From a virus, in the IMG/VR virus record IMGVR_UViG_3300037149_000105, positions 64,001-128,000 of that record: 64,000 nucleotides of DNA; one strand, written 5' to 3'. Below, in pieces: positions 14,951 through 57,128 of this stretch. Within the stretch, counting starts at the first letter, position 1, and every line of letters begins with the position of its first letter. Position numbers and translations under genes: made by a program. The notes under the pieces were generated by a model. That model was not told the DNA's origin. It made no database searches and saw only the letters and a list, made by a program, of their open reading frames with translations.

Positions 14951-15035
14951 GACGGTGGTGGTCGGATGGATCTGACGCTGGTCTGCAAAACCAGTCCCGG
15001 CAGGGCAATACGGAGTTCAATTCTCCACACCGTCT
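14951..15035 (+). tRNA. tRNA-Cys(GCA), long variable arm, no encoded CCA
   Basis: GACGGTG/CACCGTC, U73, loop CTGCAAA. Confidence 0.8.
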
Positions 15036-15106
15036 CAGTAATACCATCTGAGGGCTACTCCTCTCCCAAGGAAATGCTTGCTTGGTGATGAACCTTCAGT
15101 AAGAAT

Positions 15107-21491: not shown

Positions 21492-21576
21492 CCCCGAATG
21501 GCGGAAGTGGCGAGACGCGCGAGACTTAAAATCTCGCATCCGTAAGGGTATGAGGGTTCGAATCCCTCTTCGGGGA
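21492..21576 (+). tRNA. tRNA-Leu(TAA), no encoded CCA
   Basis: CCCCGAA/TTCGGGG, loop CTTAAAA, class II arm. Confidence 0.92.
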
Positions 21577-22200
21577 CAGGTGATGCCTAATAGCATTATC
21601 AGACACTCCTAATTCTCTGGCTAACACAGAAAAGTTGGAAGTAGCAAGACGCGCAAGTAGTTCTTCATGCGAAGGCCACTCTATTTTTGTCGGTTGTGGT
21701 TTTATAGACTTCTTTTCTTTAGGAGGGGAGGGTGACTTTGAGATATTTTTACCTCGATAGGTATCAGTTTGTGCATGGCAATTAGGGCAAATTACTCTAA
21801 GATTACTTAGGGTATTATCCATATGATTACCATTGATATGGTCCAATTCTAGGGGGATCGAGAGCTTGTTCCATTTAACTAACCCACATATACCACATTG
21901 TTTTATGAATACCCCCTCTGAAAAGAGCTTTTGTTTCAGTTTTGCTGATTGAATAGGGAAGCGGTTGTTTAAATAATCATCCAGGTCTCGTCTTGGCGGG
22001 AGTTTCACCCCTTTGCTCCAGCTTTTCCCCACAAAGTGCTTAGTGCTAACTGGCCATTTTTTGAGCGTTTGATAAAATTGCCGGTAGTTTCCTCCCTCAG
22101 CAACAATGTTGAGTTTGGTTAACACCTCCCGCACACAAGTGGAGCCTAACACTGCTTCTTTGAAAATTTCCTCAGTATAAGTTCGTTCAATCCGTTTCAT
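21526..22200 (-). CDS. HNH endonuclease with C-terminal HTH
   Basis: LELDHING...DN.LSNLRVICPNCHAQT; paralog of 19614..20291. Confidence 0.9.
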   Translation of the reverse strand: MKRIERTYTEEIFKEAVLGSTCVREVLTKLNIVAEGGNYRQFYQTLKKWPVSTKHFVGKSWSKGVKLPPRRDLDDYLNNRFPIQSAKLKQKLFSEGVFIKQCGICGLVKWNKLSIPLELDHINGNHMDNTLSNLRVICPNCHAQTDTYRGKNISKSPSPPKEKKSIKPQPTKIEWPSHEELLARLATSNFSVLARELGVSDNAIRHHLSPKRDSNPHTLTDARF

Positions 22201-30885: not shown

Positions 30886-30939
30886 TGTTTTTGTCTCATG
30901 GCCGTGCCATGAGTGGATTGAAACAAATAGGAGATCGTC

Positions 30940-39728: not shown

Positions 39729-41012
39729 TTAAGGCTTGAGTATTGCGGTTTCGCTCAGTTTTTGTGAATGCTTGATATGGAACTCAAAATTATAGCCAGC
39801 CTGTTTGACTGCTTGTGCTTTGGCGTGGTTCATAGCCAAAGTTTTTTGATAAGTGTACACTGATTTTACCTCAATGATTAGGTTCTTGGATTTAATAAAA
39901 ATGTCAGGGTAATACCTACGTAATTTTCCTTTGAATTCATAGAAGAAACTAGGGCAGTCAATTCCGGTTAAAATATCAGCTTCTGAAGTGCCCGAATCTA
40001 ACAACTCTTGAATAACTAAAGGCTCGTATCCTTGGACTTGGATAGTCTTTCCAGAAGGAAAAGTGAACGTCTTACGAGCATAACCTAACTTTAATCTGGA
40101 GTGAAAGAATATGGGAGACTGAAGCGGGTAAGGCACTCCATACTTGTTAATATTTGTTACCTCTCCTTTTGCACGAATCTCTGCCGATTGATAAGGGGCG
40201 GTAACTCCATAACGAGCCACACAAGTCAAAGCTCGCTTAGCTTCGCATTCCGGATTTTGGCGGGGATGTTCATACCCCGTCTTTATTCTCTGACCTTCTT
40301 TCCATTTTTTATTTTTTGCGTAGTGTCCCCCATAACGAGCATTTATTGTCTCCTGAATACGCCTACCCATCCCAGGAATTTGAAATACGTTGTCCACTCC
40401 AAACATTTTTTGGAGCACAGCTTTTCTTTTTTCATACCCAGATTTTAAGGATCCATGCCTGCTAATTTCAGTCTCCTGTTTTTTAGCTACAAACTCAGGA
40501 AGACTAATGGGATTAGCCACTCCATAGCGGTTAAGACAGGTTTGCTCTCTTTTCTCAATGAAAGAGTGATCCTGTGTATGGTGCTCCACGCCGTACCGTT
40601 CCAATGAAGTTTTTCTTCTCTCTTCTTCAGAATGAGCACACTTAGCCGGACACTTCTTGTAATGATCTGAACAACACCAATACCAATGAAGAACCTGCCC
40701 CGTATTTGTCTTGACCGATTTCATCAGATGAAACTTAGCCAGAGATCCACAGCCATTTTCGCATAGTTGGCCCTCAGAGGGCAACTCAGCACTCCTCCTT
40801 GCTTGCCGCTCCTTCTGCCCTTTGGCATGTCTTTCCTTTTGAATTTTCGCTCTGGTTTCCAAATCCATAATAGAGACTGCATGGGCTGTAGTATTTTTTG
40901 ATTGCATAAGTCTGTAACCTAGACATTCCCTAGCCTTTTGATGACAACAGTACAACCTTTTAGCAGCATGGTAGTAATTTCCAGCACCGCCACACAGATA
41001 GCAGCTACCCAC
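39729..41012 (-). CDS. putative homing endonuclease with YG repeats and C-terminal PD-(D/E)xK domain
   Basis: T.L.RYGV repeats; QGYE, YYPDIFI....IIEVKS. Confidence 0.75.
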   Translation of the reverse strand: MGSCYLCGGAGNYYHAAKRLYCCHQKARECLGYRLMQSKNTTAHAVSIMDLETRAKIQKERHAKGQKERQARRSAELPSEGQLCENGCGSLAKFHLMKSVKTNTGQVLHWYWCCSDHYKKCPAKCAHSEEERRKTSLERYGVEHHTQDHSFIEKREQTCLNRYGVANPISLPEFVAKKQETEISRHGSLKSGYEKRKAVLQKMFGVDNVFQIPGMGRRIQETINARYGGHYAKNKKWKEGQRIKTGYEHPRQNPECEAKRALTCVARYGVTAPYQSAEIRAKGEVTNINKYGVPYPLQSPIFFHSRLKLGYARKTFTFPSGKTIQVQGYEPLVIQELLDSGTSEADILTGIDCPSFFYEFKGKLRRYYPDIFIKSKNLIIEVKSVYTYQKTLAMNHAKAQAVKQAGYNFEFHIKHSQKLSETAILKP

Positions 41013-41105: not shown

Positions 41106-41693
41106 TCAGAATTGCAGGACCCATGACATAATAAAATTAATACCCGCTGGTAAAACTAGGGGTGGGAGAGTCTTGTAATTGATCAGAATAGCGGTGTTCG
41201 TATCGTTGATGCTGGCCTGAGTGGCGTTGTTGAAGAAGGGGGCGGCCCCGAGGGTGGTAGACGAGGCGGTGCTTCCCCCACCGATAAGCCCAAGCTCCCT
41301 GATCGGAGTGTTGATTGAATCGGTCGTAGCATTCAGAATTGTCTGAAAATCAACTATGTTGGAATAGCCCTCGTTTGGAATGACATTCAGATTCTCATCC
41401 ACGAACTGAATATAGCTGCACGGCTTGCGAAGAATTGGGGTGATGATGTTCTGCTGGGTAGGCAACGCATCAGGCTGGTTGTTCAGCGGCCAATCAGGCG
41501 CACCGGCTCCAATCGCCAGCCCCCACACACCCGCAACCGGATCACTGATGTTAGCCATCATTCTGGCGAACAAATATTGTGTATTCAAGCACACAGTGTT
41601 ATGCTCCGCAAATATTGTGTTGCTTGGGTTAGCTTCTTCGAACACTCGAATATAGCCCTTTGCTGGGATGGTCATTCTGTCATTGTTTTTCAT
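41106..41693 (-). CDS. putative baseplate/tail structural protein
   Basis: HN.V, AIG.G, IRELGL, NYKT pattern of myovirus baseplate proteins. Confidence 0.55.
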   Translation of the reverse strand: MKNNDRMTIPAKGYIRVFEEANPSNTIFAEHNTVCLNTQYLFARMMANISDPVAGVWGLAIGAGAPDWPLNNQPDALPTQQNIITPILRKPCSYIQFVDENLNVIPNEGYSNIVDFQTILNATTDSINTPIRELGLIGGGSTASSTTLGAAPFFNNATQASINDTNTAILINYKTLPPLVLPAGINFIMSWVLQF

Positions 41694-44458
41694 GCTTTCT
41701 CCTTATAATTCATTACTCTGGCAAAGAGGACTTGATGCAGTCTGGACTGCTTCTCGCCCCGTGGGAGTTGATCACTCTCTTCGTCCAAGAGTTTGCGGAG
41801 CCGTTTAGACGCCTCATCCGCACCAAGCACTTGGAACAGATATTTGTAGCCCCAATTCTGGTTTTCAAACATCTTGTCTTCAATTTCTTTCCATCGACTT
41901 TTCTTTATCTCAGCGATGTATTGGAGTATTCCGCTGGCTATATCTACGGGTCCATCGTCATAATCGGTTCCCCATTTTCTTTCATTAAATGCTTTAGCTG
42001 TGGCTGCTTCAAGCTCGGGCCATGGCTTCCCATTCATCCGCTCCTTGATATACTCAATCGCATTAGTGAGCCCTCTTCTCCGTCCCGCCCTCTCTATGAG
42101 GGTCTCTTCCTGACGAGGGATTCGCTCATTCTTTTCGTACACTCGATCAATATATTCCTCGTTATCCAGGATGGCCGGATAGTCTCTCTCAAGCTCAGGC
42201 CACCGTTTAGGGTGGAACCTCATCATATACTGATTGAGATTATAGTTACTGAGGTAACGTGCCTTCTCAAGCACCCATGCCTCACCCACCGCAGAAATAT
42301 TTTTCATTTCAGTCAATGTATCCATGATGTTACGGTCATCAAATGAGGGGGAGTTGATGACCCACTCCAAAACCTTATCAGTGGGATCGGGGAGATCCTT
42401 ATCCCGATGGTTATCTTTCCAGAACTCATACTCCCGCTTTGGAGTTGTCCGAATTTTTGTTTCTCCTCGATCCACTTTTTGGAGCTTATCCTCCATCGCT
42501 CTTTCAGTCAGGAGTTCAATTTCAGTGATCTTCTTTTCGAAAGAGGGCTGCGCCCAGGTGGGGATTTTCCTAATTTTGAAGGGGCTACCGTTGAGGAAGT
42601 TCTCTCTCCCATAGGCTGCCACTTCCTTCAGTTTAGTGAATCCCGCTAGGGCTGCGTCAAGCTTCTCTCTGGCTGGAGCTTGGATATCCTTCAGAGCCTG
42701 TCCGATAGCGGCAGAAGCTCGTTCCTCTGCACCCCCATCTCCGGAAACTCTACGTTTGTAGATGTCCCCTGCATCCTTCAATAGTCTGTATGCTACGCCG
42801 TATTCTGGTTCTGCTTTTGCCCGCTCAACCGCCTTCTCCCAGGCTTGGTTCACAAAGGGACGGAACATGTTCTTTATCATTTTGATATAGGGCTGAACCG
42901 CCGTATTTCTTGTGAAATCCCTAGTCTGCATCCCGTGAGCCCCATATCCACCCATAAGTTGCACGGTAAACCCACTCACATTTCCATCAGCGTTGTTATA
43001 ACTATAGGTGGATGAGGGAAACTTGCTGTTCAACAAACCTACCAGAGCCTCGCCCTCACTTACCGCTTTCTCGCTTCCTTCTTTTACAGCCGCTCTAAAC
43101 TGAGCAAACTTCTCATCCCAGTCATATTCCTTAGAGAAAAGGGCAAACACCTTCTTGAACAACGGTTCAATTCTGAAGGCTAACCCATATTCTGCCGATG
43201 TGAGGTGGTTGGGATCAGAATCGGGGGTGCTCATGGACTTAACGAAGTCAGTGTAGGATTCAGTTCTATCAATTTTCTTTGCAATTTCAACCACGTTCTT
43301 ATTAGCCTCGTAGTAGGGGGCAACCGCCTCTCCGGTACGAGCGTAACGATTAGTCAACTCTCTGAGTTCATCTGGCTCTAAAAGTTCGTATCTGGGACGA
43401 ATATACTTTTCCTCGACATCCAAGAACTTCTTGTCCTTCTTTACATTACCACCATTGACCATAACATACTCTTGCAGATAAGAGAACGTCTCAGCCGCAT
43501 CCAGATTAGGGACCTGATAGCACCCCATCGTTTTAGTCAGATCTGCCCTGGCCCGGTCGTTCATTGTGCCCTTAGCTAGGGCTTTTTCAATCAATTCCGC
43601 ACACTCCGGGTTCATCAGCTTGGTCCCGTACATATGGGAGTTGTTTCGACTCATGAACTGCGCCTTGCTTTCATTGTTATGTTCGTCCTTTGCGGGATCA
43701 AGTTGGAAGAAAGGGTCGCCGTTCTTGTACGCCACATAATTGGGGCCGGTGGATAGATACTTGGTGGCAGTGCCTACGTCTTTGGTACACCATGCGGGTT
43801 CATTGTTTGGGGGAAAGCGAGAGAGAGCAGATAGGTCTTCTGCACTAGTTACCTGCCATAAAATATACGTCTTGTCCTGATAGATAATTGTTGCCCCCTC
43901 TGGGCTTAGTTCAGGAAGGGTGTAGATATCTGAAGCGGAGTTGAACTTTGTCAAGGTGCTTCTCAGATTTGCCAAATCAGAGAACCGGTTTAGGTCGGTG
44001 GGGAGGTCTTGCTTCTTCCACTCAGGACTTTTACGGAGATCAGTAAAATCAGTCAGATTCTGTTTTATTGATTCTGTGTCTTCCTTCCATTGATTTTTCT
44101 GCCCATCATCCATGGCCAGCCATATCTTCAGCAGCCATTCGGTGAAATCATTCTTGTTGATGCCATCCGTAGGGTCAGCCGCAGCCACTCCGGTCAAAAT
44201 CTGAGCATATTTTGCATTAAGCATCTGCTCATTCTGCTTCTTAGCTTCTTTCTGGTCTTCCTCGTCTCCCAGTGTCTCATCCATCAGATTGACCATATTA
44301 TGGGTCGTCACATAGTGGTAGAGCTTAGGGCCGTATCGATTAGGACCGGCCAGAAACTCTATCTTCCTCTCGCTGATTGCCTCTTTATGGATCAACGGAG
44401 AAGCCAATGAGGCGAGAAGAGTGATGACTTCGGACATGTGGGGCTCCAAACAGTTCAA
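41690..44458 (-). CDS. large hypothetical protein (DPT...WCT domain, C-terminal RWPELE repeats)
   Basis: 922 aa; shared motifs with 37984..39714. Confidence 0.8.
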   Translation of the reverse strand: MNCLEPHMSEVITLLASLASPLIHKEAISERKIEFLAGPNRYGPKLYHYVTTHNMVNLMDETLGDEEDQKEAKKQNEQMLNAKYAQILTGVAAADPTDGINKNDFTEWLLKIWLAMDDGQKNQWKEDTESIKQNLTDFTDLRKSPEWKKQDLPTDLNRFSDLANLRSTLTKFNSASDIYTLPELSPEGATIIYQDKTYILWQVTSAEDLSALSRFPPNNEPAWCTKDVGTATKYLSTGPNYVAYKNGDPFFQLDPAKDEHNNESKAQFMSRNNSHMYGTKLMNPECAELIEKALAKGTMNDRARADLTKTMGCYQVPNLDAAETFSYLQEYVMVNGGNVKKDKKFLDVEEKYIRPRYELLEPDELRELTNRYARTGEAVAPYYEANKNVVEIAKKIDRTESYTDFVKSMSTPDSDPNHLTSAEYGLAFRIEPLFKKVFALFSKEYDWDEKFAQFRAAVKEGSEKAVSEGEALVGLLNSKFPSSTYSYNNADGNVSGFTVQLMGGYGAHGMQTRDFTRNTAVQPYIKMIKNMFRPFVNQAWEKAVERAKAEPEYGVAYRLLKDAGDIYKRRVSGDGGAEERASAAIGQALKDIQAPAREKLDAALAGFTKLKEVAAYGRENFLNGSPFKIRKIPTWAQPSFEKKITEIELLTERAMEDKLQKVDRGETKIRTTPKREYEFWKDNHRDKDLPDPTDKVLEWVINSPSFDDRNIMDTLTEMKNISAVGEAWVLEKARYLSNYNLNQYMMRFHPKRWPELERDYPAILDNEEYIDRVYEKNERIPRQEETLIERAGRRRGLTNAIEYIKERMNGKPWPELEAATAKAFNERKWGTDYDDGPVDIASGILQYIAEIKKSRWKEIEDKMFENQNWGYKYLFQVLGADEASKRLRKLLDEESDQLPRGEKQSRLHQVLFARVMNYKEKA

Positions 44459-44472: not shown

Positions 44473-47400
44473 TTACGTTGTTCTGATAAGACGTTTCTGC
44501 CTTACTGGAGTGGGATAGACGTTTAGCTCATCCTCTATTTCGTGAAGACGGTCGTCAATCTGGTTCCACCGTTCCACGAGTTTCTCGTACTCCTCTGACC
44601 ATTTTATAGAGTCCCCCTCCTGAGCATTTTCTTCTAGGGCTTGGTCTACCACTTGCTGCTCTTTGGTTAGCTGTTCCTTTTCATCCATCAGAGGGGCAAA
44701 CTCAGTCTCTTTTTCGTCAAACAACAGCCCCTGAGCCGCATCCATTTTCTCAACATGGAGGTCCATATCAGGATATAGCTTTTGGAGATACTTGAGCATC
44801 TCGTGACCCACATACTCTCTTGGATCCACAGCTTTGCGTAACCGCTCGGACATCAGTTTCCTGGCCTCTAGAGTAGTCAGAGCTTGGTTTCCAATGTCGA
44901 TGCTATCAATCCACGGGTAGCCCTCATAGATGGAATAACGAATCTCTCCCACACAGAATCTTCCGTTGAGGGCGAACAGTGTGAAGTAATCCTGGGCAAA
45001 CCGGCGGTGGTGGTGCTCATGTTTGAACGTCAACGCTCCAATCTTTATCAGCAAAGAGGAGTTTATTTTGCTCGCAGTTGTTCGGGAAGCTCCGCCTCCA
45101 ATTCCGGTGGGAGTAATGCCCCCGGCTTGTGATCCGGGTATGCCATCCCCAGATACGCCTCTCTTGTAAGAGGAATCTTGTGAGTCTGCATGAAGCATAG
45201 GATCGGATCCGACCCAGCTTGGGGTTTCGAAGACGTTTTTTCCGCCCCTTCGTTCTTTGATAACAGCGGTGATTTTTTCCCTAGCTTGTTCGGCATTGAG
45301 CCCTCCATCTTCTGGATCGTGTGAGGCCCAGATCTCATTTGCAATACGGATGAACTTCTTGTCTCGCTTGTCCGCAGGGCTGAAAAGTGCCCTCACGGCC
45401 TCCCAGGTGATTGACTGGAGTTCGCGGGGTAGGATGCCCACCGCAGGGTCTTTCGCGGCTCTACGGTATGCCTCAGCGTAAAGAGCATAGAGTCCGTTCA
45501 GACCTGTGATTGAACTATTACTCGGACCTGGAATCTTCTCCATATCGGGGTCACCCTCGACATATTCGCCCTCATCATCATCCCATACCCACACCTTGCC
45601 ATTTTTGTCTTTCTTAGGGTTGAAACCGGTGCCAAAGTTATGAGCGACTTCTACCGCCGCACCACTCAGCGGGCGAATCAGTGCCGCCGCAACCGCATGG
45701 GTATCAATCGTTACATCACCCTCATCAGCCATTGGGGCGATAAGATTGTTGTAGAATGACCGCACCTTATGATTCGTTCCAACCAATTTAGATACATCAC
45801 TGACCGATTCTGATTCAAGGATTCGGACAGCCTTGGAGATGGCGGCGAAGCTGTTCCAGCGAACCTTAGCATTCTGTTTCCCAGTTTTGAACCAATCTCC
45901 AAAATTCCCTTCCGGAGTGACTTCACGAAGCTTGTTATCCGTATGTCCTTCGGCCCAAGCCCTGATCCATACGGAAGCCAAATACTCTCGACCTGATTCA
46001 GGGGTATTTTCTGTTAGCACTTCGTTGAGAGTTTTACCACGAAGCAGAGGAATGGCCAACGCTGTAGACCACTTCAGCTTGGGCTCCTTGGTTTTCTTGG
46101 GTTTCCTGGCACTTTCCTTTTTCTTCTTGCCACCCTCCTCTGACTCTCCGGCCCTAACCGCTTCCTTCATGTCATCTTCCAGGTCATCCGGGGTCCAGTT
46201 GCGATGCAGGGCCACCCGATCCATCTTCCAATCCCAGCGGAAGTCTTTCAACTCTACCAACGCTTCAATGATACGTTCTGCGGTGGTGACGTTCTGGAAC
46301 CAGTGAGCCTGGGGGGACATCGCCGCCACCACAGCCGCCACCTTGTGTGGCTCCAGATGGAACTTCTCCGCCCACCTGTGAATGATGCGATTGCCTCCCA
46401 CGTACCATAATTTAGCCCTATCCGCTAGGGATTTATCCCAAGTCTTATACAGCCAGATGAGGTTTGCAGCCATGTGGTTGATGATCTCTTCAGCCTTTTC
46501 ATGAGCATCAAACTTCTGGAAACGGCCCTCTCGCATATATTTAAAGTTGGGGTAGTTATCTACCGCTAGGTTGACATTATACTCAAACTTCTCATTCTCC
46601 ATCATCTTCTGAAGGTCCGGTTGGCTAGTAGCGTGACTGTGGGGGTCAACCTCACCGGGCTTCAGCACACTGCTTTGGGCGGCTGGACTGATGCGCCTAT
46701 CCGCCAGTGACTTGGCTAAGTCCTCTTCCTCTTGAGTCGGAGGAGTAACCTTTTCAGCGTTTGGTGTCTCCTCATTCACCATCCCCTCCACGGGGTCTAC
46801 GTTTAACCCACCACCTTCGGTTCGGGGCTTCACTGAAGCGGTAAGCAAAGGGCTGGAGGGGTTGAATGTCCCCTTGTTTCCTATGGCTGATTTTACTTGA
46901 CGGGGATTCCATACGATGTAATGGCGAGTGCCAGGGGCCATTCTCATGTTTAGAAATTGAGCACTCGCATCCATGATAATCCCATCGAACCCCATGTAGC
47001 GGTAGATAGCAGAGATAAGAGCGCCTGCACCTCCTTGAGCACCCGCACTTTCATCATTTCCTCTTACAGCTTTTTCAAATTCATAAGCAGAGCAGCCCTC
47101 TAACAACTTCTCCACCAATTCTTCCCATATGCGGTCTGCTCGTATGTCTGACTCTGAGCAAGCAGCCTGTACCGCCTCATAGAGTTTGGTAACTTCAGGG
47201 CCATCTACCCACTCATCTTCATTCTCCGGGTCAGGGCCACCATCCCCACCCAAGTAGGTTCCGCCTTTTGGTGTTACGATGACTGGGTTTTCCATTTTCA
47301 AGTAAGTGAGGTAGACGGCCCCCTGATGAGTCCCACCTAACATTTCCCATGCTTTTTTCTTGGCAAGCTCTCGGATAGCTTTGGGGTTGTCTTCGTGCTC

Positions 47401-50400
47401 TTCCCCCATCTCTTCTTCCCAATCTCCCCCATCACTCATCAAGTCTTCTGCAACCTCATCAATTTTTCCAGCCAAATCTCGGCAATTGATATCTGCATAC
47501 TGACTCGCATCCACTTCACAATCGGTAAAATATATCCCCTTGCTATACCAGCCATCCGTGTATGCGTTACTCATAGAGAATTGGTCAAATTCATTGGTGG
47601 TTCCGTGCATGACTCGTTTTGGGGTTCCGTCCTTATTGACAACTTTGGAATCACCGAACCACGCCTTAAATTGCGGAGTCTCATGCGGCTTGGGTCTTTT
47701 TGCAAGTTCTCTTCCAATTTGTTGAGCGGCTTCATTTACAGCCTGCTGGGCCGACATCGCTTTCTTGACCCTTCCGATTTTTGAGATAGCCCCAACCAGC
47801 CGCTCTGTAGCTTCATTGCGGCTCGTCACACCGGTCATATCGGTGTTCTTGATTGCCGCCGCACAACTCAGCAGGTAGGATTTGGACTCCTGGTTAGCCC
47901 CATAGAGCGCACAGTCCAACAACTGGGAGAAGTCAAACGCCCCCCTGGACCCAGACTGAATGATGTTTACTACCGCATCTTTTGGCAAAGACTTGGCTTG
48001 CCGGATATTTTCCCGGTTCTTTTTAACAAACTGAGCCGCTTGTTTGATTTGGTTGGACAGGCCCAGCCGGTTGTTCAGACTATCCGGAACGGGAAGCAGA
48101 GACTCAATCCCCACCATCTGCATATCAAAATCCCAACCATTCTGATGACCATAATTGACTGATTTAGCTATACTGTCCCAATTCTGCTCGAATTCACTAA
48201 ACCAGGGTTCTAGGCACCCACCCTCACGTAGCACTTCAAAGAACCGCATCGGAACCTTGCCGACAAGCGCACGTTTGGTCTCTTCTCGGATACGATCAGC
48301 CGGGAGGTATTGTAGTTCTGGCTGCATCCGCCGCATCATTTCTACCAGTTGGGGGCTCACCTTCCACTCAGACCCAAATTGGGCACTGAAACGAGCCGCC
48401 CTATATACCCTTAATGCATCCTCAGCAAACTTCTCACTGACGTTCTGGAGGGTCTTATCCTTGATATTTTGCAGTGCTTCAGGAGGTCCGAACAGCTTGC
48501 CGTCCGCATCCACCGACATGGCGTTCACGTTTAGGTCCCGGCGAACCATGTCGTCTTCGAAGTTGCCGGTTGGAGTAACATCAAAATCTTTGTGACCCAC
48601 CCCATTTTTTTCTTCGGAACGGGCCACCGCGATTTCAATTTGGCCATAGGTTGGATCTTGGTAAAGGTAGACAGGGAAAGCCTTCCCCACATTCTCCAGA
48701 CCCATTTGCTGCAACGTTTCTGCCGTTGTGTTGGTAACCACATCAAAGTCCTTTGGCTTACGGTCAAGTAGCATGTCTCTGACGCAACCACCAACAAAAC
48801 GGAAGTCAGCCCTGGGGTCAAACATGTAAGCCATCTGCTTGAGCTTCTTCAGCATATATAGGGGTAGCTTGACCTCCTGGTCATGAGGAAGCTGAACCAT
48901 CGCAGCCTGCTTGGAGGCAACTGTCATCCCCTGGTACCGCCAGACTTCACCTGGGTTCTTCATGTTTAGAAGCTCCCCAATTGGAATCCCTGCGTATTTT
49001 CTGCCACCTTCGTATTGCTCAATGTAAACCTCATCCTTCATTTGGGTCAAGTCAGACTCCTCCAGTCCACTCTCATTAAATACCCAATCGATGATGGTGT
49101 CAAGATTTCTTGGAGTGAGTCGCCACACTTCAAAGTTTTTGTCTACAACCCGGATTTGGTTGTAAAATCGCATGAAGAACTCTCGGACTTCGTTCTTGAA
49201 CATGTCATACTCGCCATTAAAAATGGCATCACACTCTTCCAGAGACACATAACCCCAGATGAGGGTAAAGAACACATCTTCCACTGGAAAGTCAGGCTCC
49301 CCATACTTCATCGCATGGAGCTTTCGCCACTCTTCCTCCACCTCTCCTGGGTTGTTGTCATCTTCTTCTTCGTGGGCCTCATGAAGATGACGCTGACAAG
49401 CACTAAGAATTTGGTCCCACTTGTCATTGAGAATCTGTTCTCTGGCATAGGTTTCGTGGGTATAGTCCCCGTCTCCACTGCATTCTGCATAGTTGTTCGC
49501 TGAGTCGCCATCTACCCAGTATTCACCATTGATGAAACTACCCCACCCTGCGGCAAGTTTGCTGCTGTAGTGTTGTCGGGCCACCTCTTCATCAAGTCCG
49601 TAGTCTACCAAGACCGGATACCGCTCACCCCTACGTTCGACCAGCCCCCACTGGCTCTCTCGATCAATGTCCCACCATTTAACACCAAGTGTCTGGCATA
49701 AGAACTGAAGAGATTTCACTGCCTGCCTATCTGTAAGAAATTCTGTTCCCCCACGCTCTACTTTTTTACAAAAGTTGTAGGCGTTGGTTGCTCCATATCG
49801 TTCGAAATCTGAATAGGTGGCCCCTCTTAGGACTCGCTCAACTACGAGCCAGTGAAACTCAGTATCATAGTAAAAAATGCGAGTGATAATAGTGCAATCC
49901 TCAACCTTCTCATACATTCTGAGTTCGGCTTTGTTCTGAGCCACACCGGGCTGATTGATCGCTAGCTTGATTGCAACATGTTCATTTACCCCGACGACCA
50001 TACGGGAAGACCCTTCCCCTAAAACTGGAAGCTCCATTCCGGTTCGCTCTCTCAGGAGCTTTAAGCGATCCCTGACGGTCTGAGAGTAGCCATTAGGCTC
50101 CTCCCAATTGTTATCCCCCTCCCCTTCATCCTGACCTTCTGGTGATATTTCGTGAATGCCGGGAAGTTTTTTGAGCAGATCCTTTGGGATATTTTTAGGC
50201 TTCTCTTCAGCCACTTTGACTTGATCGGCGTCCTGTTCCCCAAAGATGTCAATCAATGCAGTTAAAAGTTCCCTAGGTACTTCAGAGCCATCGGCCCATT
50301 TGGTCAGTCCCTTATTGGTTACACGACTAACGCCTCGTGGAAGCCCATTGCGGTCGTATAGGATGACGAACAAAGGGCCTGGGGTGCTCTTGTAGATGGT

Positions 50401-51039
50401 CTGCTTGTAGCGGTCGATTATCTTACGAGCGTCATTTAATTCCTGTTTATCTCGTTTCTGCACTGGTTTGCCCAGGTCCACCATCATACGCTTATTTGTG
50501 TCCGGTGCTCTCCAAACAGATTTGGAGATGCCCTCTTCCCGTCCTGCATGACGTTCTAAGAACTCTTCATCACTGACGTTATCATCATAAAGCCTGCTCC
50601 ATGCACCAGAGTCTTCACTGGCCGTCTTCTGATTGACAATTCGCTCATGAACTATATCGTAGAATTGCTGGCTCAAAGGGAACAGGATTTCATAACCGTA
50701 CATCAATTCAGTTCCGTAGAAGTCGATCTCGGTCTGCTTGATAGCCTGCATCATCGCCTTGATGACCCCCGCATCCTCTCCGAACTCAGTCTCGGATAAG
50801 AAAGCCTTGATTTGTTCTAGGATAAGTGCAGTCCCTTCATGAAATACAATCTGGGTGTGTCCTGGGTTGTCCAAAGGGATAGGGAGTTCTAGCATGAATA
50901 CTGAAAATCGAGGAATACCCAAGTCAATCAGCCACTGGATTCGGGGCCGCTCATCTCGGATGAAATAGATATTAATGACACCCTGCTCAGGTAGGACAAA
51001 TGCTCTCTTCATGCTCACACTCTCAATATTGATACCCAT
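44473..51039 (-). CDS. polyvalent protein: kinase-like, CCA-adding (class II NTase), ART-like, glycosylase-like and GNAT-like domains
   Basis: LGEGSSR..IK..Q N..E..DYG; VGGCVRD...DFDV, RRDL.VNAM, EDALRVYRAARF; FKAWFGDSKVV..HGT..GIYFTD..GFDGII; WY..AAMSPQ..KVRSFYNN..TIDTH..LQSITW. Confidence 0.85.
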   Translation of the reverse strand: MGINIESVSMKRAFVLPEQGVINIYFIRDERPRIQWLIDLGIPRFSVFMLELPIPLDNPGHTQIVFHEGTALILEQIKAFLSETEFGEDAGVIKAMMQAIKQTEIDFYGTELMYGYEILFPLSQQFYDIVHERIVNQKTASEDSGAWSRLYDDNVSDEEFLERHAGREEGISKSVWRAPDTNKRMMVDLGKPVQKRDKQELNDARKIIDRYKQTIYKSTPGPLFVILYDRNGLPRGVSRVTNKGLTKWADGSEVPRELLTALIDIFGEQDADQVKVAEEKPKNIPKDLLKKLPGIHEISPEGQDEGEGDNNWEEPNGYSQTVRDRLKLLRERTGMELPVLGEGSSRMVVGVNEHVAIKLAINQPGVAQNKAELRMYEKVEDCTIITRIFYYDTEFHWLVVERVLRGATYSDFERYGATNAYNFCKKVERGGTEFLTDRQAVKSLQFLCQTLGVKWWDIDRESQWGLVERRGERYPVLVDYGLDEEVARQHYSSKLAAGWGSFINGEYWVDGDSANNYAECSGDGDYTHETYAREQILNDKWDQILSACQRHLHEAHEEEDDNNPGEVEEEWRKLHAMKYGEPDFPVEDVFFTLIWGYVSLEECDAIFNGEYDMFKNEVREFFMRFYNQIRVVDKNFEVWRLTPRNLDTIIDWVFNESGLEESDLTQMKDEVYIEQYEGGRKYAGIPIGELLNMKNPGEVWRYQGMTVASKQAAMVQLPHDQEVKLPLYMLKKLKQMAYMFDPRADFRFVGGCVRDMLLDRKPKDFDVVTNTTAETLQQMGLENVGKAFPVYLYQDPTYGQIEIAVARSEEKNGVGHKDFDVTPTGNFEDDMVRRDLNVNAMSVDADGKLFGPPEALQNIKDKTLQNVSEKFAEDALRVYRAARFSAQFGSEWKVSPQLVEMMRRMQPELQYLPADRIREETKRALVGKVPMRFFEVLREGGCLEPWFSEFEQNWDSIAKSVNYGHQNGWDFDMQMVGIESLLPVPDSLNNRLGLSNQIKQAAQFVKKNRENIRQAKSLPKDAVVNIIQSGSRGAFDFSQLLDCALYGANQESKSYLLSCAAAIKNTDMTGVTSRNEATERLVGAISKIGRVKKAMSAQQAVNEAAQQIGRELAKRPKPHETPQFKAWFGDSKVVNKDGTPKRVMHGTTNEFDQFSMSNAYTDGWYSKGIYFTDCEVDASQYADINCRDLAGKIDEVAEDLMSDGGDWEEEMGEEHEDNPKAIRELAKKKAWEMLGGTHQGAVYLTYLKMENPVIVTPKGGTYLGGDGGPDPENEDEWVDGPEVTKLYEAVQAACSESDIRADRIWEELVEKLLEGCSAYEFEKAVRGNDESAGAQGGAGALISAIYRYMGFDGIIMDASAQFLNMRMAPGTRHYIVWNPRQVKSAIGNKGTFNPSSPLLTASVKPRTEGGGLNVDPVEGMVNEETPNAEKVTPPTQEEEDLAKSLADRRISPAAQSSVLKPGEVDPHSHATSQPDLQKMMENEKFEYNVNLAVDNYPNFKYMREGRFQKFDAHEKAEEIINHMAANLIWLYKTWDKSLADRAKLWYVGGNRIIHRWAEKFHLEPHKVAAVVAAMSPQAHWFQNVTTAERIIEALVELKDFRWDWKMDRVALHRNWTPDDLEDDMKEAVRAGESEEGGKKKKESARKPKKTKEPKLKWSTALAIPLLRGKTLNEVLTENTPESGREYLASVWIRAWAEGHTDNKLREVTPEGNFGDWFKTGKQNAKVRWNSFAAISKAVRILESESVSDVSKLVGTNHKVRSFYNNLIAPMADEGDVTIDTHAVAAALIRPLSGAAVEVAHNFGTGFNPKKDKNGKVWVWDDDEGEYVEGDPDMEKIPGPSNSSITGLNGLYALYAEAYRRAAKDPAVGILPRELQSITWEAVRALFSPADKRDKKFIRIANEIWASHDPEDGGLNAEQAREKITAVIKERRGGKNVFETPSWVGSDPMLHADSQDSSYKRGVSGDGIPGSQAGGITPTGIGGGASRTTASKINSSLLIKIGALTFKHEHHHRRFAQDYFTLFALNGRFCVGEIRYSIYEGYPWIDSIDIGNQALTTLEARKLMSERLRKAVDPREYVGHEMLKYLQKLYPDMDLHVEKMDAAQGLLFDEKETEFAPLMDEKEQLTKEQQVVDQALEENAQEGDSIKWSEEYEKLVERWNQIDDRLHEIEDELNVYPTPVRQKRLIRTT

Positions 51040-51062
51040 AGTCGGGGAGTTTGAGCCTGAGC

Positions 51063-51785
51063 CTACTCTCCCTCTGGCAGAAAGCCCTCTTCAATCAGAT
51101 ATTCAGTGAGGTCTCCGGAGTAGCCATGTCTTCGAATATACTGCTGAGCCTTCTCTATTTCTTCCGTAGTTATATCTGGTTTGGCAGAGGTCATAGCATC
51201 TTCTACCTCTAAATCCACCTGATCCCATTCTAAACGCTCACTTGCCCTAATGGCACAGTCCTCTGAACAGTAGGTATCAAACCCCTCACTATCCGAATAA
51301 CAATCTCTCCGGCTGGCTGGGAGGGGTTCTCCACATTCCGCACACTCTCCAAACTGTCGAATCATCCAGTCTCTTAGTTCATTGGTTGGGTTTTCCCAGC
51401 CCTCTTTACCTATATACTCATCAAAGTATTCTGCTGCAACTTCATCATTTTTTCCAGAAAACAGCATCTTCTCAGCTTCGGGCCAGCTATGTCCTAGGAC
51501 ATCACGAGCATAATCGTAAATATGAGACACTCCGTCAATGATCGCATCTTCACCGGCTGGGAACCGCTGATTGTTTAAACAAAAAGCAGCATACTCATAG
51601 CTGTATCTTCCATTAGTCGCAATTGCAGCTTCCCCTTCTGGAAAAGGAATTTCATTCGTAATCGCATAACTGAAGGCAACTTTAGGGATGTGAGAGTAAT
51701 TCTTAAGCAGCGAATCCGTAAATTTCTTGCTTAACCCATTTATATGCAGCTTATATAAAATTCGATAAAAGTGGTCGGCATCCAT
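51063..51785 (-). CDS. hypothetical protein with helical repeats and C-terminal Zn finger
   Basis: YA....FPEGEAAI repeats; CAECG...YCSEDC. Confidence 0.75.
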   Translation of the reverse strand: MDADHFYRILYKLHINGLSKKFTDSLLKNYSHIPKVAFSYAITNEIPFPEGEAAIATNGRYSYEYAAFCLNNQRFPAGEDAIIDGVSHIYDYARDVLGHSWPEAEKMLFSGKNDEVAAEYFDEYIGKEGWENPTNELRDWMIRQFGECAECGEPLPASRRDCYSDSEGFDTYCSEDCAIRASERLEWDQVDLEVEDAMTSAKPDITTEEIEKAQQYIRRHGYSGDLTEYLIEEGFLPEGE

Positions 51786-52822
51786 TAGTCCATATCCATG
51801 ATGTCAAGATTGTCATCTGAGACTTCCCAAACGACCAAAGTAGGTCCGATCTCACCTGGGAATGGAGGCTGGTTACCAACTGGAACAATGTTTCCCTTAG
51901 CATAAGTGCTATAGGTATTGAACTCAGCAAGCGTGTATGTTTCCTGGAGCGGAGGAGCCCCAGAGGATGCCTGTACGAAGGAGTTGTACTCGTTGCTATC
52001 CGTGTCAGTGCTAGCCAAACCGGTATCCGGGGAATCGGAGTCGAAAGAGGGGGCCTGATAGAGAGGGAGTGGGAATGGGAGGTCTTCAATCATGGATGCG
52101 GTAATCGTCAACGAATCGTCAATGCCATAACGGCCATATATGTAGTCCCCAATGTGCTCGTCTTGCCCAAAGATGGCTGACAGGTTAAGGCCAACATGCG
52201 CCGGTTTAGCTAGATCAATTGCAGTATATAAGTCGTTTGTGATGGTTTGAAGGGTGCTGATCGTCCCGGAAATGGTGGCCTCACCGGCTGCAAAATTAAT
52301 TAAAGAGCCAGAATCGCTCCCAGCCACTTGAACGGAAATTTGTAGCGTGTTGCGGTCTGTCGCGTCATAAACTCCGTTTCCAATTAGTTTGTATAGTTCC
52401 TGGACAACAATACTCTGCCCCGTATAGGCTTGGATGATGTTTTCTAACGTTACTACCCGACACCCTGTCTGGAACGCCTTGACCAAGTTCACCACAAGAC
52501 TCAGGTAATCCTGATCATACTGACCTGGGTAGGGTGAGTTTCGACTGATAAACAACACATCTCCCCACTGCCTCTTCGCATCCGGAGGAGTTAGATTTGC
52601 AGGGTTCTTTCCAATGATGTCGTAGGTGTGGGCGTATTCCAGACGAGCCAATTCGGTAGCTACATTACGCAGCAGGGAGCCCCAGATGGTCTGATCCGTC
52701 TGGCTGATGTAAAAGTTTGGAACGTTGCCAAGCAGATAGTTAAACTCTGAGTCCTCGTATTGAATCAAGGCATCTCGGGACTGGTTGTAGAGTTGGTCAG
52801 GGTTCGCCATCATTACCTTCAA
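51785..52822 (-). CDS. putative baseplate wedge protein
   Basis: AKPAHV motif typical of baseplate wedge subunits; context. Confidence 0.6.
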   Translation of the reverse strand: MKVMMANPDQLYNQSRDALIQYEDSEFNYLLGNVPNFYISQTDQTIWGSLLRNVATELARLEYAHTYDIIGKNPANLTPPDAKRQWGDVLFISRNSPYPGQYDQDYLSLVVNLVKAFQTGCRVVTLENIIQAYTGQSIVVQELYKLIGNGVYDATDRNTLQISVQVAGSDSGSLINFAAGEATISGTISTLQTITNDLYTAIDLAKPAHVGLNLSAIFGQDEHIGDYIYGRYGIDDSLTITASMIEDLPFPLPLYQAPSFDSDSPDTGLASTDTDSNEYNSFVQASSGAPPLQETYTLAEFNTYSTYAKGNIVPVGNQPPFPGEIGPTLVVWEVSDDNLDIMDMD

Positions 52823-52842: not shown

Positions 52843-53271
52843 CTACAGAATCTGTTCGCCTTCCACATTTTTATTTTCGTCTAAATGAAACACGAAAACT
52901 TCAGAGGGATAACTATTTTTCCATCTCAGCCCATTTATAGAAGCCTCACCATGCTTTAACATGTTGGTCATACTGTACAAAGCTACCACTAAATATGGCT
53001 GCATGTAAGCCTGTTGAAGTGCATCCACTAAAAAGTAGCGACCTTTTCGTGTGGGAATAGTGATGCTTTTGACTCTCTCAATTCCTCCACCCCGCATGAA
53101 CTTACTAGCCATGACCAAATGTCCACTGAATAGGTGCTTTACTTTTTCCTCATCTGGATAGCCATCCTGCCACCCCCACTCATATGTAAAGCAAGAGTCT
53201 AGAAGGGCTTTTAGCCTCTCACTAAGAAGCCCCTTCTCAATTAGGGCTTTGAGACTCTCGTTGCGTTTCAT
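52843..53271 (-). CDS. hypothetical protein
   Basis: ATGA overlap with upstream gene. Confidence 0.6.
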   Translation of the reverse strand: MKRNESLKALIEKGLLSERLKALLDSCFTYEWGWQDGYPDEEKVKHLFSGHLVMASKFMRGGGIERVKSITIPTRKGRYFLVDALQQAYMQPYLVVALYSMTNMLKHGEASINGLRWKNSYPSEVFVFHLDENKNVEGEQIL

Positions 53272-56200
53272 GAGGTTGTGTAAGAAATCGTTACCGAACC
53301 AAGAGTCAGATACTCGGTGGAGCTAAGGGTAATGTCTCGATATCCACCCTCACGCCATGCCTGATAAGTTACCTTAAAGCTGAAATCAGAGGGGGTCACA
53401 TATTTGTTGGAGAGGTAGGATGGGAAAGTGGCAATGATACAGCCTTCGTATACGGAGGGAATGGGAGTGATGGAGTTAATCTGATCTTCTACTCCGATGA
53501 TGTAGAACGCTCCATCCAGGGCCGTGGTGCTGGTAGGTGGGTTCTGAACCAAATCCATCACACTGCTTGCCCGTCTGAACTGGTCTCCTTCATACAGCAT
53601 CCCAACGTATGCGTCTGGGAGGCCCCCAGAGGGGATGGTCTGATCAGGTAGGACGTTGGCCGTGGTTGAGAGTATCCATGTGTTAGCGGCGAAGGGAAGG
53701 CTGCCAAAGGTGGTGTCCTGGGTGATAGGTAGCCATGTAGTGCCGGTTGGGATGATAATCCCAACATCGTATGACCCATCCGACTTAGCTAGTTTGGTCA
53801 GTGGGACGATGACATTGGCAATCCCCGGAATAGATTTCACTTGCCTGATTACCTCTGACTGGGTTACAGTGCTGTTTGCGTTACTCAGCACCACACCTAG
53901 AACCGTTCTAATCTGCCCATCTATGACCACTGAGGTCACATTTGGGTTAAGTTCCACTGATAATATGATATCCACCGCATTTGCCATCATCTGCTTAATC
54001 AGCACATCTCCTCCCGCATTTTTGGTTTGGGAGATAGCGTTGGCCACTTGTTCGATGTAGCCGGGGTAGCCGGTGGTGATTGAGAACATTTCGTTGTAGA
54101 AGTAAGAAACCAGAACAGAAGACTTGTCTGGGATTCGACCTGTTAGGACTCTAGCCACATATGCTTGGTAAGTGTTCTGATCAATGGTCAGATTGTAATC
54201 CTGTCCTTCCACCATTACAGTTGGTCCTGATCCATTATCATAAGTCACTTTAATATAACGATTTTGTTTAGGAATGAAAGCAGAGATCAAAGTGGAGTCC
54301 ATCGAAAGCATTGTGTAGCCATAGGACTCTGGAATCCATACATTTTGAATAAATCCTGGGTTAGCGAGGGGAACAAATGTGGACCCAGTGAGAGTTTGGG
54401 CTTCTCCGGTAACCAGAGTGCAATACTCATGCAGCGTGTATTTGTTGTAGCCAATCAACAGGGCCTGACCCAGGGGGATGATTCCCGTAGGGAGTCGCTG
54501 AATGCTGTAGGCGTTATAGTTGCAAATTGGAGCAACTTGAGGACTGATTACGGCTGGATTCCCAGAATACGCGCTAAGTCCAGTGGGGATGATGGTATAA
54601 TCCACATTCAACTTGTAAACAGTGCTCAGATCCGCAGACCGCACTGAGTTGATTCCATATACATGACCCTGGTTGTCCAGACTTACTTGTATATCCGTGT
54701 CAATGGGCATGATGGAAGGGCCACCGGTTTGAAAGGCAAAGGGGACCAGAGAACCAGGAGCTACCCCAGGCATAGTGGAGAGGACGATTGGGGTGATATT
54801 TGAGTAGGTCGCATTTGCAGTGGTGTCAATTTGAACCAAATCATTGGCTTCATTTGAGAACCCGTTTAACAGGGGGTCTTGGCTATGAATTAGTCTTACC
54901 CCTAGCGGAGAAAGAGTCCCACTATTCCCGTTTCCTGTGACACTATAGACCGTTGAAACCGGCTGAGCCGTAGGGTACCGTTGAAGTGGAGTCTGCATTC
55001 TAAACCACCCCACAATTGAAATATTGGCAGCCTGGGGAGCCAGAAGGGCAATAATCATCTGGTTGGTTTGATTCACCCCATTAAGTTGGAATATTTGATA
55101 CTGTTCATTCGCCCCACCGGCATTGATAAGCTGGTAGCAAAGTTCTGTTGGGTTTAAGTATACGGTGTTAGTGAGAGGGTCCACCTTGCAAGTTTGCACA
55201 CCAAAGAAAATCTGGTTTGCTCCCTGTGTGGCAACGATTTCTACGGGAGTGTAAATAGCATTTGAAAGTGCAGTAGTGGGCTTGATAGCGAGAAGAGCTT
55301 TGCTAGAAATCTGTAATGGAACATAGCTGACAAAACTTCTATATGTTGAAGAGCTACTCCCCCAAGTGAATACCTGTCCATCAGTCTGTTGAGAATCGCT
55401 TGCTCCCCTTACATAGATATCCACACAACCAAATATATGCTTTCCACCTCCGGCCATTGTAGGCTGGATGAGCCAGTCTCGAAGCATTTCCACATCACCG
55501 GCAGCTACTACGTTTGCTCCGATGATCCCTGGAGTGGCCAACGCAGTGTTCAAATAACCTAGCCGACTACCACTATCCACTCCAACAACCATACGATTCT
55601 TGATCATAACCGCATAAGATGAATTGGATTGTTGGTCTGTGCCATATGTGGCTGGCCCTTGGTTGATACAAAGCCAGCCGGAGGGTAACCCTGAAGCCTG
55701 TGTAATCGCACCCGCACCCACGTTTCCAATGGACCCCACTACTGTGCATTCTGCTGGGACATTCACACTCCACCAATTATTGGCCGAATTATAGATTGAG
55801 CTAATGCTCTGTGGGGTAACAACCGCTGATCCCACCGCAGAGAAGGTCACCGCTGGTGCCTGACTGTTACCAATAGAGGAAAAAGTCATTGCTGATTGGG
55901 TGAACGACACTTCCGTGGTGGGCTTGGTGTAGGTAAAGAGGGTCATCATGACCACTGATTGAGTGGCCCCACCTCTTGGAACCCCCGCTCTTTCTCCAAG
56001 AATATCGAACTGTTTGTTAATCAAAAGCTGAGTATTAGACGCAGATAAGTTCCATGCGGTAGCGATTTGAGATTTGAATGGACTGGTGTTGAATGGGTCT
56101 GAAATGCCATCCCCGTCATAGTCATCAATCGTTGCCATCGCACTGATTGATTGAGAGCAACGACCAAACCATTCCCTCACAGATTGCTGAGAAAGCTCCA

Positions 56201-57128
56201 AACTGATTGGGTCAATGTGAAGATCCCTAAGCTCGGATCTAGGAGTCAAATCCAATTGTGGGTAGTTTGCCATCGCAGAACTAATTAAGCGTGAGGCGAT
56301 GTCTTCTTTCTGCTGAAGATACTGGTAATCATAAGGACTTACTTGCCGCAAGTCAACGAAACCTAATTGGAAGGGACCGTTGAAATTGGACTCGTAAACT
56401 GTGTTTGTTGTTGGATCCTGCACCACTGTAGAAAGAACAGCGTAGAAGTAACTAGCTCCTCCAGCAATCGACTGAGGAAATATGACCGAACTGAAGCTCA
56501 CAGGAGTGGTAGTGGCAGTGGTGGTTGTGGTAGTCTGGTTATCCACCACTGCTGTGGAAGTGGTGGAGCTAGTAATGCTATTAATGGCTCTTGTTATTTG
56601 GGTTACCAATGGGCCATACTGTTGGTAGGGGACGTTGATCCCCGTTGAATCAGTGCTATACTGCACTCGAACACCCATGAAACCAGGAGTGGTGGGGAGC
56701 ACCCATTCCAATTGCGCTTGATTCAACCCGTTATAGGTAGCTACCCCAGATGGGGGATTAAGAACTGGAAGAACCCCTGTGAGTCCTGTGTAGACTATTC
56801 CAAATGAGGCGGTGGGGGTTGCGAAGGCTTGACCTGGAAGCGGTGGGTTAGATATATCATAGTTCGTCCCAACAGCTAAAACCTGGATTACCGAAGATGA
56901 GGGAGTCAAACCCGTTACGCTTATAGTAAATTGATTGAAGCCTCCGATCAGGGTGGGTGAGGTGGAAGGAAAGGTGCCCCCCTCAATCGATACAGTTACT
57001 GCAATTACAGCCGTGGGGGCATTGTATACTAAATCTATTCCGTTTGTGTCTATACCAAGCTCTTGACCGGTCACTATGGGGCTAATGAGGGTCAAGGGGC
57101 TTAGGGTAACTTGGGGTATGACTGTCAT
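53268..57128 (-). CDS. baseplate J/wedge-like protein
   Basis: G..GNVGAGAI...N......G.D; ALATPGI; G.VDIYV. Confidence 0.75.
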   Translation of the reverse strand: MTVIPQVTLSPLTLISPIVTGQELGIDTNGIDLVYNAPTAVIAVTVSIEGGTFPSTSPTLIGGFNQFTISVTGLTPSSSVIQVLAVGTNYDISNPPLPGQAFATPTASFGIVYTGLTGVLPVLNPPSGVATYNGLNQAQLEWVLPTTPGFMGVRVQYSTDSTGINVPYQQYGPLVTQITRAINSITSSTTSTAVVDNQTTTTTTATTTPVSFSSVIFPQSIAGGASYFYAVLSTVVQDPTTNTVYESNFNGPFQLGFVDLRQVSPYDYQYLQQKEDIASRLISSAMANYPQLDLTPRSELRDLHIDPISLELSQQSVREWFGRCSQSISAMATIDDYDGDGISDPFNTSPFKSQIATAWNLSASNTQLLINKQFDILGERAGVPRGGATQSVVMMTLFTYTKPTTEVSFTQSAMTFSSIGNSQAPAVTFSAVGSAVVTPQSISSIYNSANNWWSVNVPAECTVVGSIGNVGAGAITQASGLPSGWLCINQGPATYGTDQQSNSSYAVMIKNRMVVGVDSGSRLGYLNTALATPGIIGANVVAAGDVEMLRDWLIQPTMAGGGKHIFGCVDIYVRGASDSQQTDGQVFTWGSSSSTYRSFVSYVPLQISSKALLAIKPTTALSNAIYTPVEIVATQGANQIFFGVQTCKVDPLTNTVYLNPTELCYQLINAGGANEQYQIFQLNGVNQTNQMIIALLAPQAANISIVGWFRMQTPLQRYPTAQPVSTVYSVTGNGNSGTLSPLGVRLIHSQDPLLNGFSNEANDLVQIDTTANATYSNITPIVLSTMPGVAPGSLVPFAFQTGGPSIMPIDTDIQVSLDNQGHVYGINSVRSADLSTVYKLNVDYTIIPTGLSAYSGNPAVISPQVAPICNYNAYSIQRLPTGIIPLGQALLIGYNKYTLHEYCTLVTGEAQTLTGSTFVPLANPGFIQNVWIPESYGYTMLSMDSTLISAFIPKQNRYIKVTYDNGSGPTVMVEGQDYNLTIDQNTYQAYVARVLTGRIPDKSSVLVSYFYNEMFSITTGYPGYIEQVANAISQTKNAGGDVLIKQMMANAVDIILSVELNPNVTSVVIDGQIRTVLGVVLSNANSTVTQSEVIRQVKSIPGIANVIVPLTKLAKSDGSYDVGIIIPTGTTWLPITQDTTFGSLPFAANTWILSTTANVLPDQTIPSGGLPDAYVGMLYEGDQFRRASSVMDLVQNPPTSTTALDGAFYIIGVEDQINSITPIPSVYEGCIIATFPSYLSNKYVTPSDFSFKVTYQAWREGGYRDITLSSTEYLTLGSVTISYTTS

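Follow-up and report, generated by a model that had tools for sequence, protein, structure and literature searches.

Why would a large tailed phage encode, close to a baseplate-type gene, a CCA-adding enzyme buried in a protein of some two thousand residues? The question is raised by the window, the 64,000-nucleotide stretch analyzed here, which comprises bases 64001–128000 of a 147,410-bp linear viral contig (IMG/VR record IMGVR_UViG_3300037149_000105; CheckV completeness 51%) and carries a giant open reading frame (ORF) at 44473–51039. A first-pass annotation had read this ORF as a polyvalent protein, injected with the phage DNA, in which a CCA-adding nucleotidyltransferase (NTase) is accompanied by kinase-, ADP-ribosyltransferase (ART)-, glycosylase- and GNAT-like domains. 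Our own overall reading, which we regard as probable, is that of a multi-enzyme polyvalent protein, maintained by selection in a large uncultured tailed phage, born by gene fusion, restoring CCA ends and possibly delivered by the virion. What appears to be new, judging from sequence comparison, is the presence of a whole class II CCA-adding enzyme inside a polyvalent protein, in one small phage clade.

The embedded tRNA nucleotidyltransferase

The ORF and the domain on which the argument turns are the following.

44473..51039, minus strand: whole polyvalent ORF, 2188 codons, uninterrupted; start by homologues at M10 (51012)
47764..48927, minus strand: class II CCA-adding-type tRNA nucleotidyltransferase, complete (amino acids (aa) 705–1092), recognized by Pfam, PHROG and its motifs

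The ORF predicted in the first-pass annotation stands: it is open for 2188 codons and kept in three other assemblies as full-length homologues of 82–88% identity, and the same unbroken frame, of 2208–2209 codons, occurs in two viral contigs. On these alignments it is no assembly artefact. Since homologues from a library of 1.8 billion proteins align from residue 10 onward, the true start is probably M10 at 51012, giving a protein of about 2179 aa.

A class II NTase had been placed in this part of the ORF beforehand, and both Pfam PolyA_pol and PHROG 2244 recognize it above their thresholds. The head matches PolyA_pol at aa 747–864 (63.9 bits vs a cut-off of 23), the neck matches PolyA_pol_RNAbd at aa 893–951 (36.1 bits vs a cut-off of 22), and the profile of PHROG 2244 (phrog_2244, tRNA nucleotidyltransferase) aligns over aa 746–1069 with an expect value (E) of 2e-67, covering profile positions 5–358 of 392. 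Motif A (GGCVRD at 750–755 and DFD at 764–766), motif B (RRD, 833–835), motif D (EDALR, 873–877, the templating EDxxR) and motif E (DRIREE, 915–920) are at hand, and motifs A–E do not vary among six aligned homologues, the most distant of which is 47% identical. The flexible loop is deleted in CC-adding enzymes; here, no gap is needed to align the stretch between motifs A and B with the loop of the Planococcus CCA-adding enzyme 6ibp, whereas E. coli poly(A) polymerase requires a 10-residue insertion in the same alignment. The best NCBIfam model is PRK10885 (Cca) with 180 bits, against 79 and 61 bits for the PcnB models, the PRK10885 alignment spanning profile positions 5–215 of 409; none of the models attains its equivalog cut-off, which for PRK10885 is 451 bits. 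No HD domain was found in the NTase region with Pfam. The embedded segment has the same length as a stand-alone 378-aa relative, and its ratio of nonsynonymous to synonymous divergence (dN/dS) is about 0.05 relative to 87%-identical homologues, at a dS near saturation. From the invariant motifs, the gap-free loop, the higher Cca than PcnB scores, the full length and the low dN/dS, the domain looks like an intact enzyme of the CCA-adding type and not a poly(A) polymerase. The earlier annotation had allowed for a poly(A) polymerase or an inactive domain; intact motifs and a score of 180 (Cca) vs 79 bits (PcnB) point the other way. The embedded NTase is the single copy of PF01743 in the 147-kb contig, and among proteins of at least 1203 aa in 5.8 billion clusters a related NTase is found only in seven clusters (P0002 to P0008), which form one clade.

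Fusion of two genes and the accompanying modules

In the metagenome contig L022 a 621-aa ORF, composed of an N-terminal domain (N1), a kinase-like domain and a short form of a domain that we call mid, ends in ...VWRMSRGQ and a stop codon and is directly followed by a separate second ORF (P0007) starting MVMKVGAVLQLP. At this junction the window continues in a single frame, ...VWRYQG-M705-TVASKQAAMVQLP. Because L022 has separate ORFs where the window reads through, the 2188-aa protein is, by this alignment, an in-frame fusion of two adjacent genes that are still split in L022. The giant ORF would have arisen when two neighboring genes of the late operon lost the stop codon that separated them, with the upstream gene contributing the N1 head and the minimal kinase-like and mid domains, and the downstream gene the CCA-adding enzyme, the ART-PolyVal, DUF7178 and GNAT-like domains and a coiled-coil hairpin. 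Other relatives begin with the kinase-like domain (P0004) or with the NTase (P0005 to P0008). At least three diverged assemblies retain the fusion, and purifying selection on it is strong.

Elsewhere the same parts are combined differently. Phage G001 (139.8 kb) has at the syntenic site a gene for a 505-aa N1-led protein without the NTase, followed by homologues of the 922-aa and 195-aa genes of the window, while its NTase, 51% identical and of the same tree clade, is a stand-alone 378-aa gene away from this locus, near a Ro-like gene and RNA genes. Metagenome proteins with N1 at their N-terminus differ in their cargo, which may be NUDIX (5 of 33), ART-PolyVal, GNAT, kinase-like or mid domains. 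Across these relatives, the modules of the polyvalent protein are seen to shuffle freely. The window protein itself unites at least seven modules in one polypeptide, those beside the NTase being as follows.

50290..51012, minus strand: N1 domain (aa 10–250), a new family without enzyme-like invariant residues
49558..50076, minus strand: minimal kinase-like domain (aa 322–494), defined by family profile and motifs
48928..49557, minus strand: mid domain (aa 495–704), with a conserved GEYW...GHE motif, ending at the fusion junction between VWRYQG and M705
46855..47682, minus strand: ART-PolyVal ADP-ribosyltransferase (aa 1120–1395), found with Pfam, with H1145, Y1170 and D1352 kept
45265..46599, minus strand: DUF7178 domain (aa 1481–1925), all-helical, with invariant K1758 and D1779
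44719..45045, minus strand: partial GNAT-like alpha/beta domain (aa 1999–2107)
44509..44703, minus strand: C-terminal antiparallel coiled-coil hairpin (aa 2113–2177)

The first three of these, N1, the kinase-like domain and mid, matched no Pfam model, models of polyvalent proteins included, and gave no tblastn match among GenBank phages; taken together they have hundreds of metagenomic relatives. The kinase-like domain carries GEGSSR (341–346), VAIK with K358, E372, D457 and DYG (479–481), and the elements GxGSSR, K, E and DYG vary little or not at all among 41 members of a widespread family, mostly proteins of 170–230 aa around a domain of about 170 aa. The curated kinase models (Pkinase, Kinase-PolyVal) matched neither the domain nor its 41 relatives in Pfam; the family profile does match the effector kinase SteC (8jbi) over the N-lobe with an E of 1.8e-5, which upholds the kinase-like call made before. 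Four metagenome proteins of the family (P0058, P0061, P0063 and P0069) consist of three or four such minimal domains in tandem. For mid, no PDB or Pfam profile match was obtained and the protein-language-model (Atlas) matches were incoherent. It co-occurs with ART-PolyVal, NUDIX and 2H phosphoesterase domains in other proteins; an assignment of mid itself as a 2H phosphoesterase was rejected, there being just one HxT motif.

Among the modules derived from the downstream gene, the ART-like region of the earlier annotation is now an ART-PolyVal domain, with a Pfam match from aa 1135 of 61.6–68.7 bits against a cut-off of 31.2. The active site of this family is formed by H on strand 1, Y on strand 2 and D on strand 5 (Iyer et al. 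2017, PMC5512222), and all three residues (in VMHGT, GIYFTD and GFDGII) are kept when the window domain is aligned with 16 others, 17 ART-PolyVal domains in all. About 130 extra clade-specific residues are held in two inserts.

The region previously described by the string WY/SPQ/KV-FY-N/IDTH/LQ-ITW proves to be Pfam DUF7178 (83.6 bits vs a cut-off of 27), and the AlphaFold model, built with 24 sequences, has a predicted local distance difference test (pLDDT) mostly of 80–95 in this domain. When it is aligned locally with E. coli endonuclease III (Nth) by hhalign, the match covers exactly the hairpin and GPD region, where K1758 and D1779 fall on K120 and D138 of Nth (E 0.17), with a score of 17.0 vs 11.9 for a reversed control; gathering homologues for an endonuclease III profile returned sequences of at least 86% identity throughout and did not improve the alignment. 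The Atlas neighbors, at low scores, are the Ogg-HhH, AGOG and HhH-GPD families. No significant Pfam glycosylase or PDB sequence match was found for DUF7178, and a PDB profile search matched the NTase of co-aligned rows alone. As the three weak lines (model, hhalign and language-model neighbors) agree, we take DUF7178 to be HhH-GPD glycosylase-like as a working assignment. The glycosylase-like call of the first-pass annotation thus gains structural leads and no significant sequence match. Its GNAT-like tail fared similarly, having gained support as a partial alpha/beta domain: on direct reading the acetyl-CoA pyrophosphate-binding motif Q/R-x-x-G-x-G/A after strand 4 is absent, and there is no Pfam GNAT match.

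Some further features of the relatives may be recorded. Strings of the S-(S/P)-L-L-x-(A/K) type recur at module ends of P0001 and P0005–P0008 (SPLLTAS, SSLLIKIGA, SSLLYKEAA, SGLLKKAV and ASLVTAA). NTase-led relatives contain extra "HGT" modules of the ART superfamily (P0005, aa ~390–450; P0008, aa ~820–873), with sub-threshold matches to PARP (E 0.006–0.008) and to the RNA 2'-phosphotransferase Tpt1/KptA (E 0.009), and P0008 ends C-terminally in a kinase-like module. A 2.8-kb island of the window, at 49300–52060, is 98–100% identical in nucleotide sequence to the viral contig L002, the surroundings being 70–80% identical. It extends from a 240-aa upstream gene through N1 and the kinase-like domain into the beginning of mid. 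The proportion of synonymous differences (pS) is 0 over 330 codons, suggesting that phage lineages have recently swapped this cassette by recombination.

tRNAs, gene neighborhood and the case for delivery

What the enzyme might act upon is suggested by the tRNAs of the phage. The CCA end is encoded in 14 of 16 of them, and the two that lack it, as the first-pass annotation had stated correctly, are candidate substrates.

14951..15036, plus strand: tRNA-Cys(gca), without encoded CCA
21492..21577, plus strand: tRNA-Leu(taa), without encoded CCA

These two tRNAs indicate that the phage has a direct intracellular use for a CCA enzyme. In the earlier annotation they had served as a pointer to injected repair, a use of them that we abandon: they are transcribed only after infection and therefore argue for intracellular maturation rather than injection. 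The phage also carries a large tRNA island, a transfer-messenger RNA (tmRNA) and an RNA ligase.

Several observations on these RNA genes stand apart from the argument. A CAG comes after the discriminator base of each CCA-less tRNA and may mark a 3'-processing site common to the two. ARAGORN reports at 13393–13468, directly after tRNA-Pro, a tRNA with a four-base anticodon (aaaa) and encoded CCA that may be of the frameshift type or atypical. The RNA ligase gene lies some 10 kb ahead of the window (G000:C1:53294-54514; L037:832-2052); its product closely resembles the Rnl5-type enzyme of Naegleria gruberi (PDB 5cot, E 1.7e-81), and an HNH homing endonuclease gene comes next. An RNA-repair cassette, with the NTase once beside the RNA ligase, was considered and rejected, the shared neighbor being the HNH homing endonuclease. 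Also rejected was a link to Cas12a through a CRISPR-repeat mimic of the phage at 30893–30924, ending in ATTGAAAC: this repeat seems unlike those of type V-A.

The case for packaging starts from the neighborhood, in which two genes are of direct concern.

53268..57128, minus strand: baseplate J-like gene, 1286 aa, 2.2 kb upstream of the polyvalent ORF and on the same strand
41690..44458, minus strand: 922-aa gene directly downstream of the polyvalent ORF, also found after the N1-led gene in relative G001

Genes are closely spaced in the minus-strand operon around the ORF: 23 nt separate the ORF from the upstream gene and 14 nt from the downstream one. The 1286-aa ORF has a Baseplate_J match at 55500–55772 (24.4 bits vs a cut-off of 21.1), and further upstream on the same strand lie Ig-rich giant proteins and an SLT lysin. 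The label "virion-structure operon" that the first-pass annotation used rests on this one match above cut-off, the tight spacing and weak baseplate and Ig-domain matches of neighbors, most neighbor genes being impossible to annotate. No sheath, large terminase, RtcB or 2H families were found in the contig (51% complete by CheckV), and GenBank phages contain no close DNA relatives of the window.

At the head of the same minus-strand block, upstream (L004:14943-18014; genome 142943-146014), there is a papain-family C1 cysteine peptidase (E 6.6e-18), which could process virion proteins, in a stretch that also holds an HNH gene, a ferritin/Dps-like protein and an SLT lytic transglycosylase. Downstream, a 427-aa homing-endonuclease-like gene (39729–41012; DUF7487, E 1e-61) sits between the 195-aa and 576-aa genes and is missing from the corresponding position in relative L003.

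Outside the window, DUF7178 proteins occupy virion gene slots: a giant one follows internal virion protein genes in Rhodobacteraceae phage LS06-2018-MD07 (OP947163), and another lies between the portal and coat genes of Roseobacter phage CRP-738. Packaging is plausible given these slots, the nearby baseplate J-like gene and the way N1 heads varied enzyme cargo. By analogy with what has been proposed for ART-PolyVal proteins, we tentatively suggest, as a real possibility, that the protein is synthesized late, packed into the particle and brought in along with the DNA. The NTase domain itself probably adds or rebuilds the 3' CCA of tRNAs, its candidate substrates being the phage tRNA-Cys and tRNA-Leu(taa) together with tRNAs trimmed by host nucleases; the neighboring domains are candidate modifiers of host proteins or nucleic acids. 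Given delivery, tRNA-end repair would be available in the next infection from its first minute on, as well as in the late phase of the producing cell.

A number of points weigh against such a reading. No MuF, DarA-N, portal-binding or processing-peptidase domains were found in the protein, and N1 has no recognizable fold or family match. The host presumably has its own Cca, the CCA end is already encoded for 14 of the 16 phage tRNAs, and if a few enzyme molecules were injected, no more than a small share of a tRNA pool could be serviced by them. In G001 the N1 gene at the syntenic site is without the enzyme, and the same NTase clade is encoded there as an ordinary stand-alone gene, from which it follows that the NTase would be useful without delivery. 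Finally, PDB single-sequence matches do not discriminate between poly(A) polymerases and CCA enzymes, the top match of the NTase being E. coli poly(A) polymerase by a narrow margin.

Three other explanations were weighed. The most serious, which we nevertheless think unlikely, is that of a cytoplasmic multi-enzyme of the late or middle phase that is never packaged, its NTase maturing the CCA-less phage tRNAs and repairing ends and the fusion being a tolerated accident of stop-codon loss. It accords with the stand-alone orthologue in the RNA-gene region of G001, the split genes of L022, the tRNA island, tmRNA and RNA ligase on the same phage, and the stand-alone CCA enzymes that large phages commonly carry (PMC7824862). 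It sits poorly, however, with the strong purifying selection under which the fusion persists across three or more diverged assemblies, with the virion gene slots that its ART-PolyVal and DUF7178 partners occupy elsewhere, and with the position of the gene among baseplate-type genes. Far less likely, in our view, is the use of the NTase as a weapon that adds nucleotides to the 3' ends of host tRNA or RNA, in the manner of MenT toxins or poly(A) polymerases, and so shuts off host translation. The ART, kinase-like and GNAT-like neighbors belong to the usual kinds of effectors that modify the host (PMC5512222), toxicity in E. coli is on record for an NTase-like protein of phage fHe-Kpn01 (PMC7291057), and the poly(A) polymerase match above would fit; yet the motif set is fully of the CCA type with its templating EDxxR, body and tail are complete, the Cca profile outscores PcnB by 100 bits, the nearest relatives are stand-alone phage tRNA nucleotidyltransferases, and the phage itself depends on intact tRNAs. 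That the protein is a fixed tail or baseplate component, carrying its enzyme domains on the particle without release into the cell, is scarcely credible despite the adjoining baseplate J-like and Ig-domain giant genes, as its recognizable domains all act on cytoplasmic substrates (tRNA, NAD-dependent modification, nucleic acid bases) and no structural fold or repeat was detected in it. We retain the fusion-born, CCA-restoring polyvalent protein as the preferred reading, with delivery as its more tentative part.

Comparison with known systems

Of the curated families, that of E. coli Cca (PRK10885) resembles the head and neck of the NTase most, with 180 bits; the window enzyme differs in staying below the 451-bit cut-off and in having no HD phosphohydrolase domain. 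The architecture of head, neck and body with motifs A–E is held in common with the phage tRNA nucleotidyltransferases of PHROG 2244, examples of which (Rhizobium phage RHph_I1_18, Sinorhizobium phiM12 and vibriophages) have 35–41% identity to the window NTase. These are found in phages with many tRNAs, where their presumed role is maturation and repair of tRNA 3' ends (PMC7824862); they stand alone, whereas the window NTase is embedded in a 2188-aa protein of a late structural-type operon. In a survey of jumbo phages from 2021, too, the CCA enzyme figures solely as an RNA-repair gene of its own (PMC7824862). DUF7178 is best compared with the HhH-GPD superfamily (endonuclease III, the 8-oxoG glycosylase AGOG/Tm1821 and QNG1/DUF2419); its invariant K and D tentatively align with those of Nth, and it is twice the size of Nth.

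As a whole, the protein is closest to the polyvalent proteins described by Iyer, Burroughs, Anand, de Souza and Aravind in 2017 (PMC5512222), in particular to the ART-PolyVal subgroup, with which it has in common the giant multi-enzyme polypeptide, the H-Y-D ART, kinase-like and GNAT-like companions, extensive domain shuffling and, possibly, a location among virion genes. It differs in being without a zincin metallopeptidase (MPTase), MuF or DarA-N domain. In the 2017 catalogue (PMC5512222), NTases appear just as minimal Pol-beta enzymes of conjugative elements and as RelA/SpoT or GGDEF domains, next to ARTs, truncated kinases and GNATs; it contains no class II CCA-adding enzyme and no glycosylase. 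To the parts of such proteins we can add tentative folds or definitions, DUF7178 being glycosylase-like of the HhH-GPD type and N1, the minimal kinase and mid being newly defined. T4 Alt, an injected ADP-ribosyltransferase encoded beside baseplate genes, is the working model for DNA-linked delivery (PMC5512222); it is a single-function protein with an ART of the R-S-E clade and its packaging in the head is demonstrated, whereas packaging of the polyvalent protein is a proposal.

Bacterial anti-phage immunity has tRNAs as a major target. Cas12a3 (2026, PMC12851939) clips the universal CCA tail of tRNAs, an attack that, according to that work, phage tRNAs cannot evade and to which viral countermeasures are unknown. 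Phage CCA-adding enzymes are obvious candidates for countering CCA-tail cleavage, and a clade with such an enzyme in a polyvalent, possibly virion-associated effector provides a concrete and testable case. That a repair enzyme loaded in the virion rebuilds CCA tails cut by host immunity, for example by Cas12a3, before any phage gene is expressed strikes us as doubtful on present grounds. If true, it would be the first virion-delivered counter-defense against tRNA-tail attack, bundled with ART, kinase-like and glycosylase-like modules.

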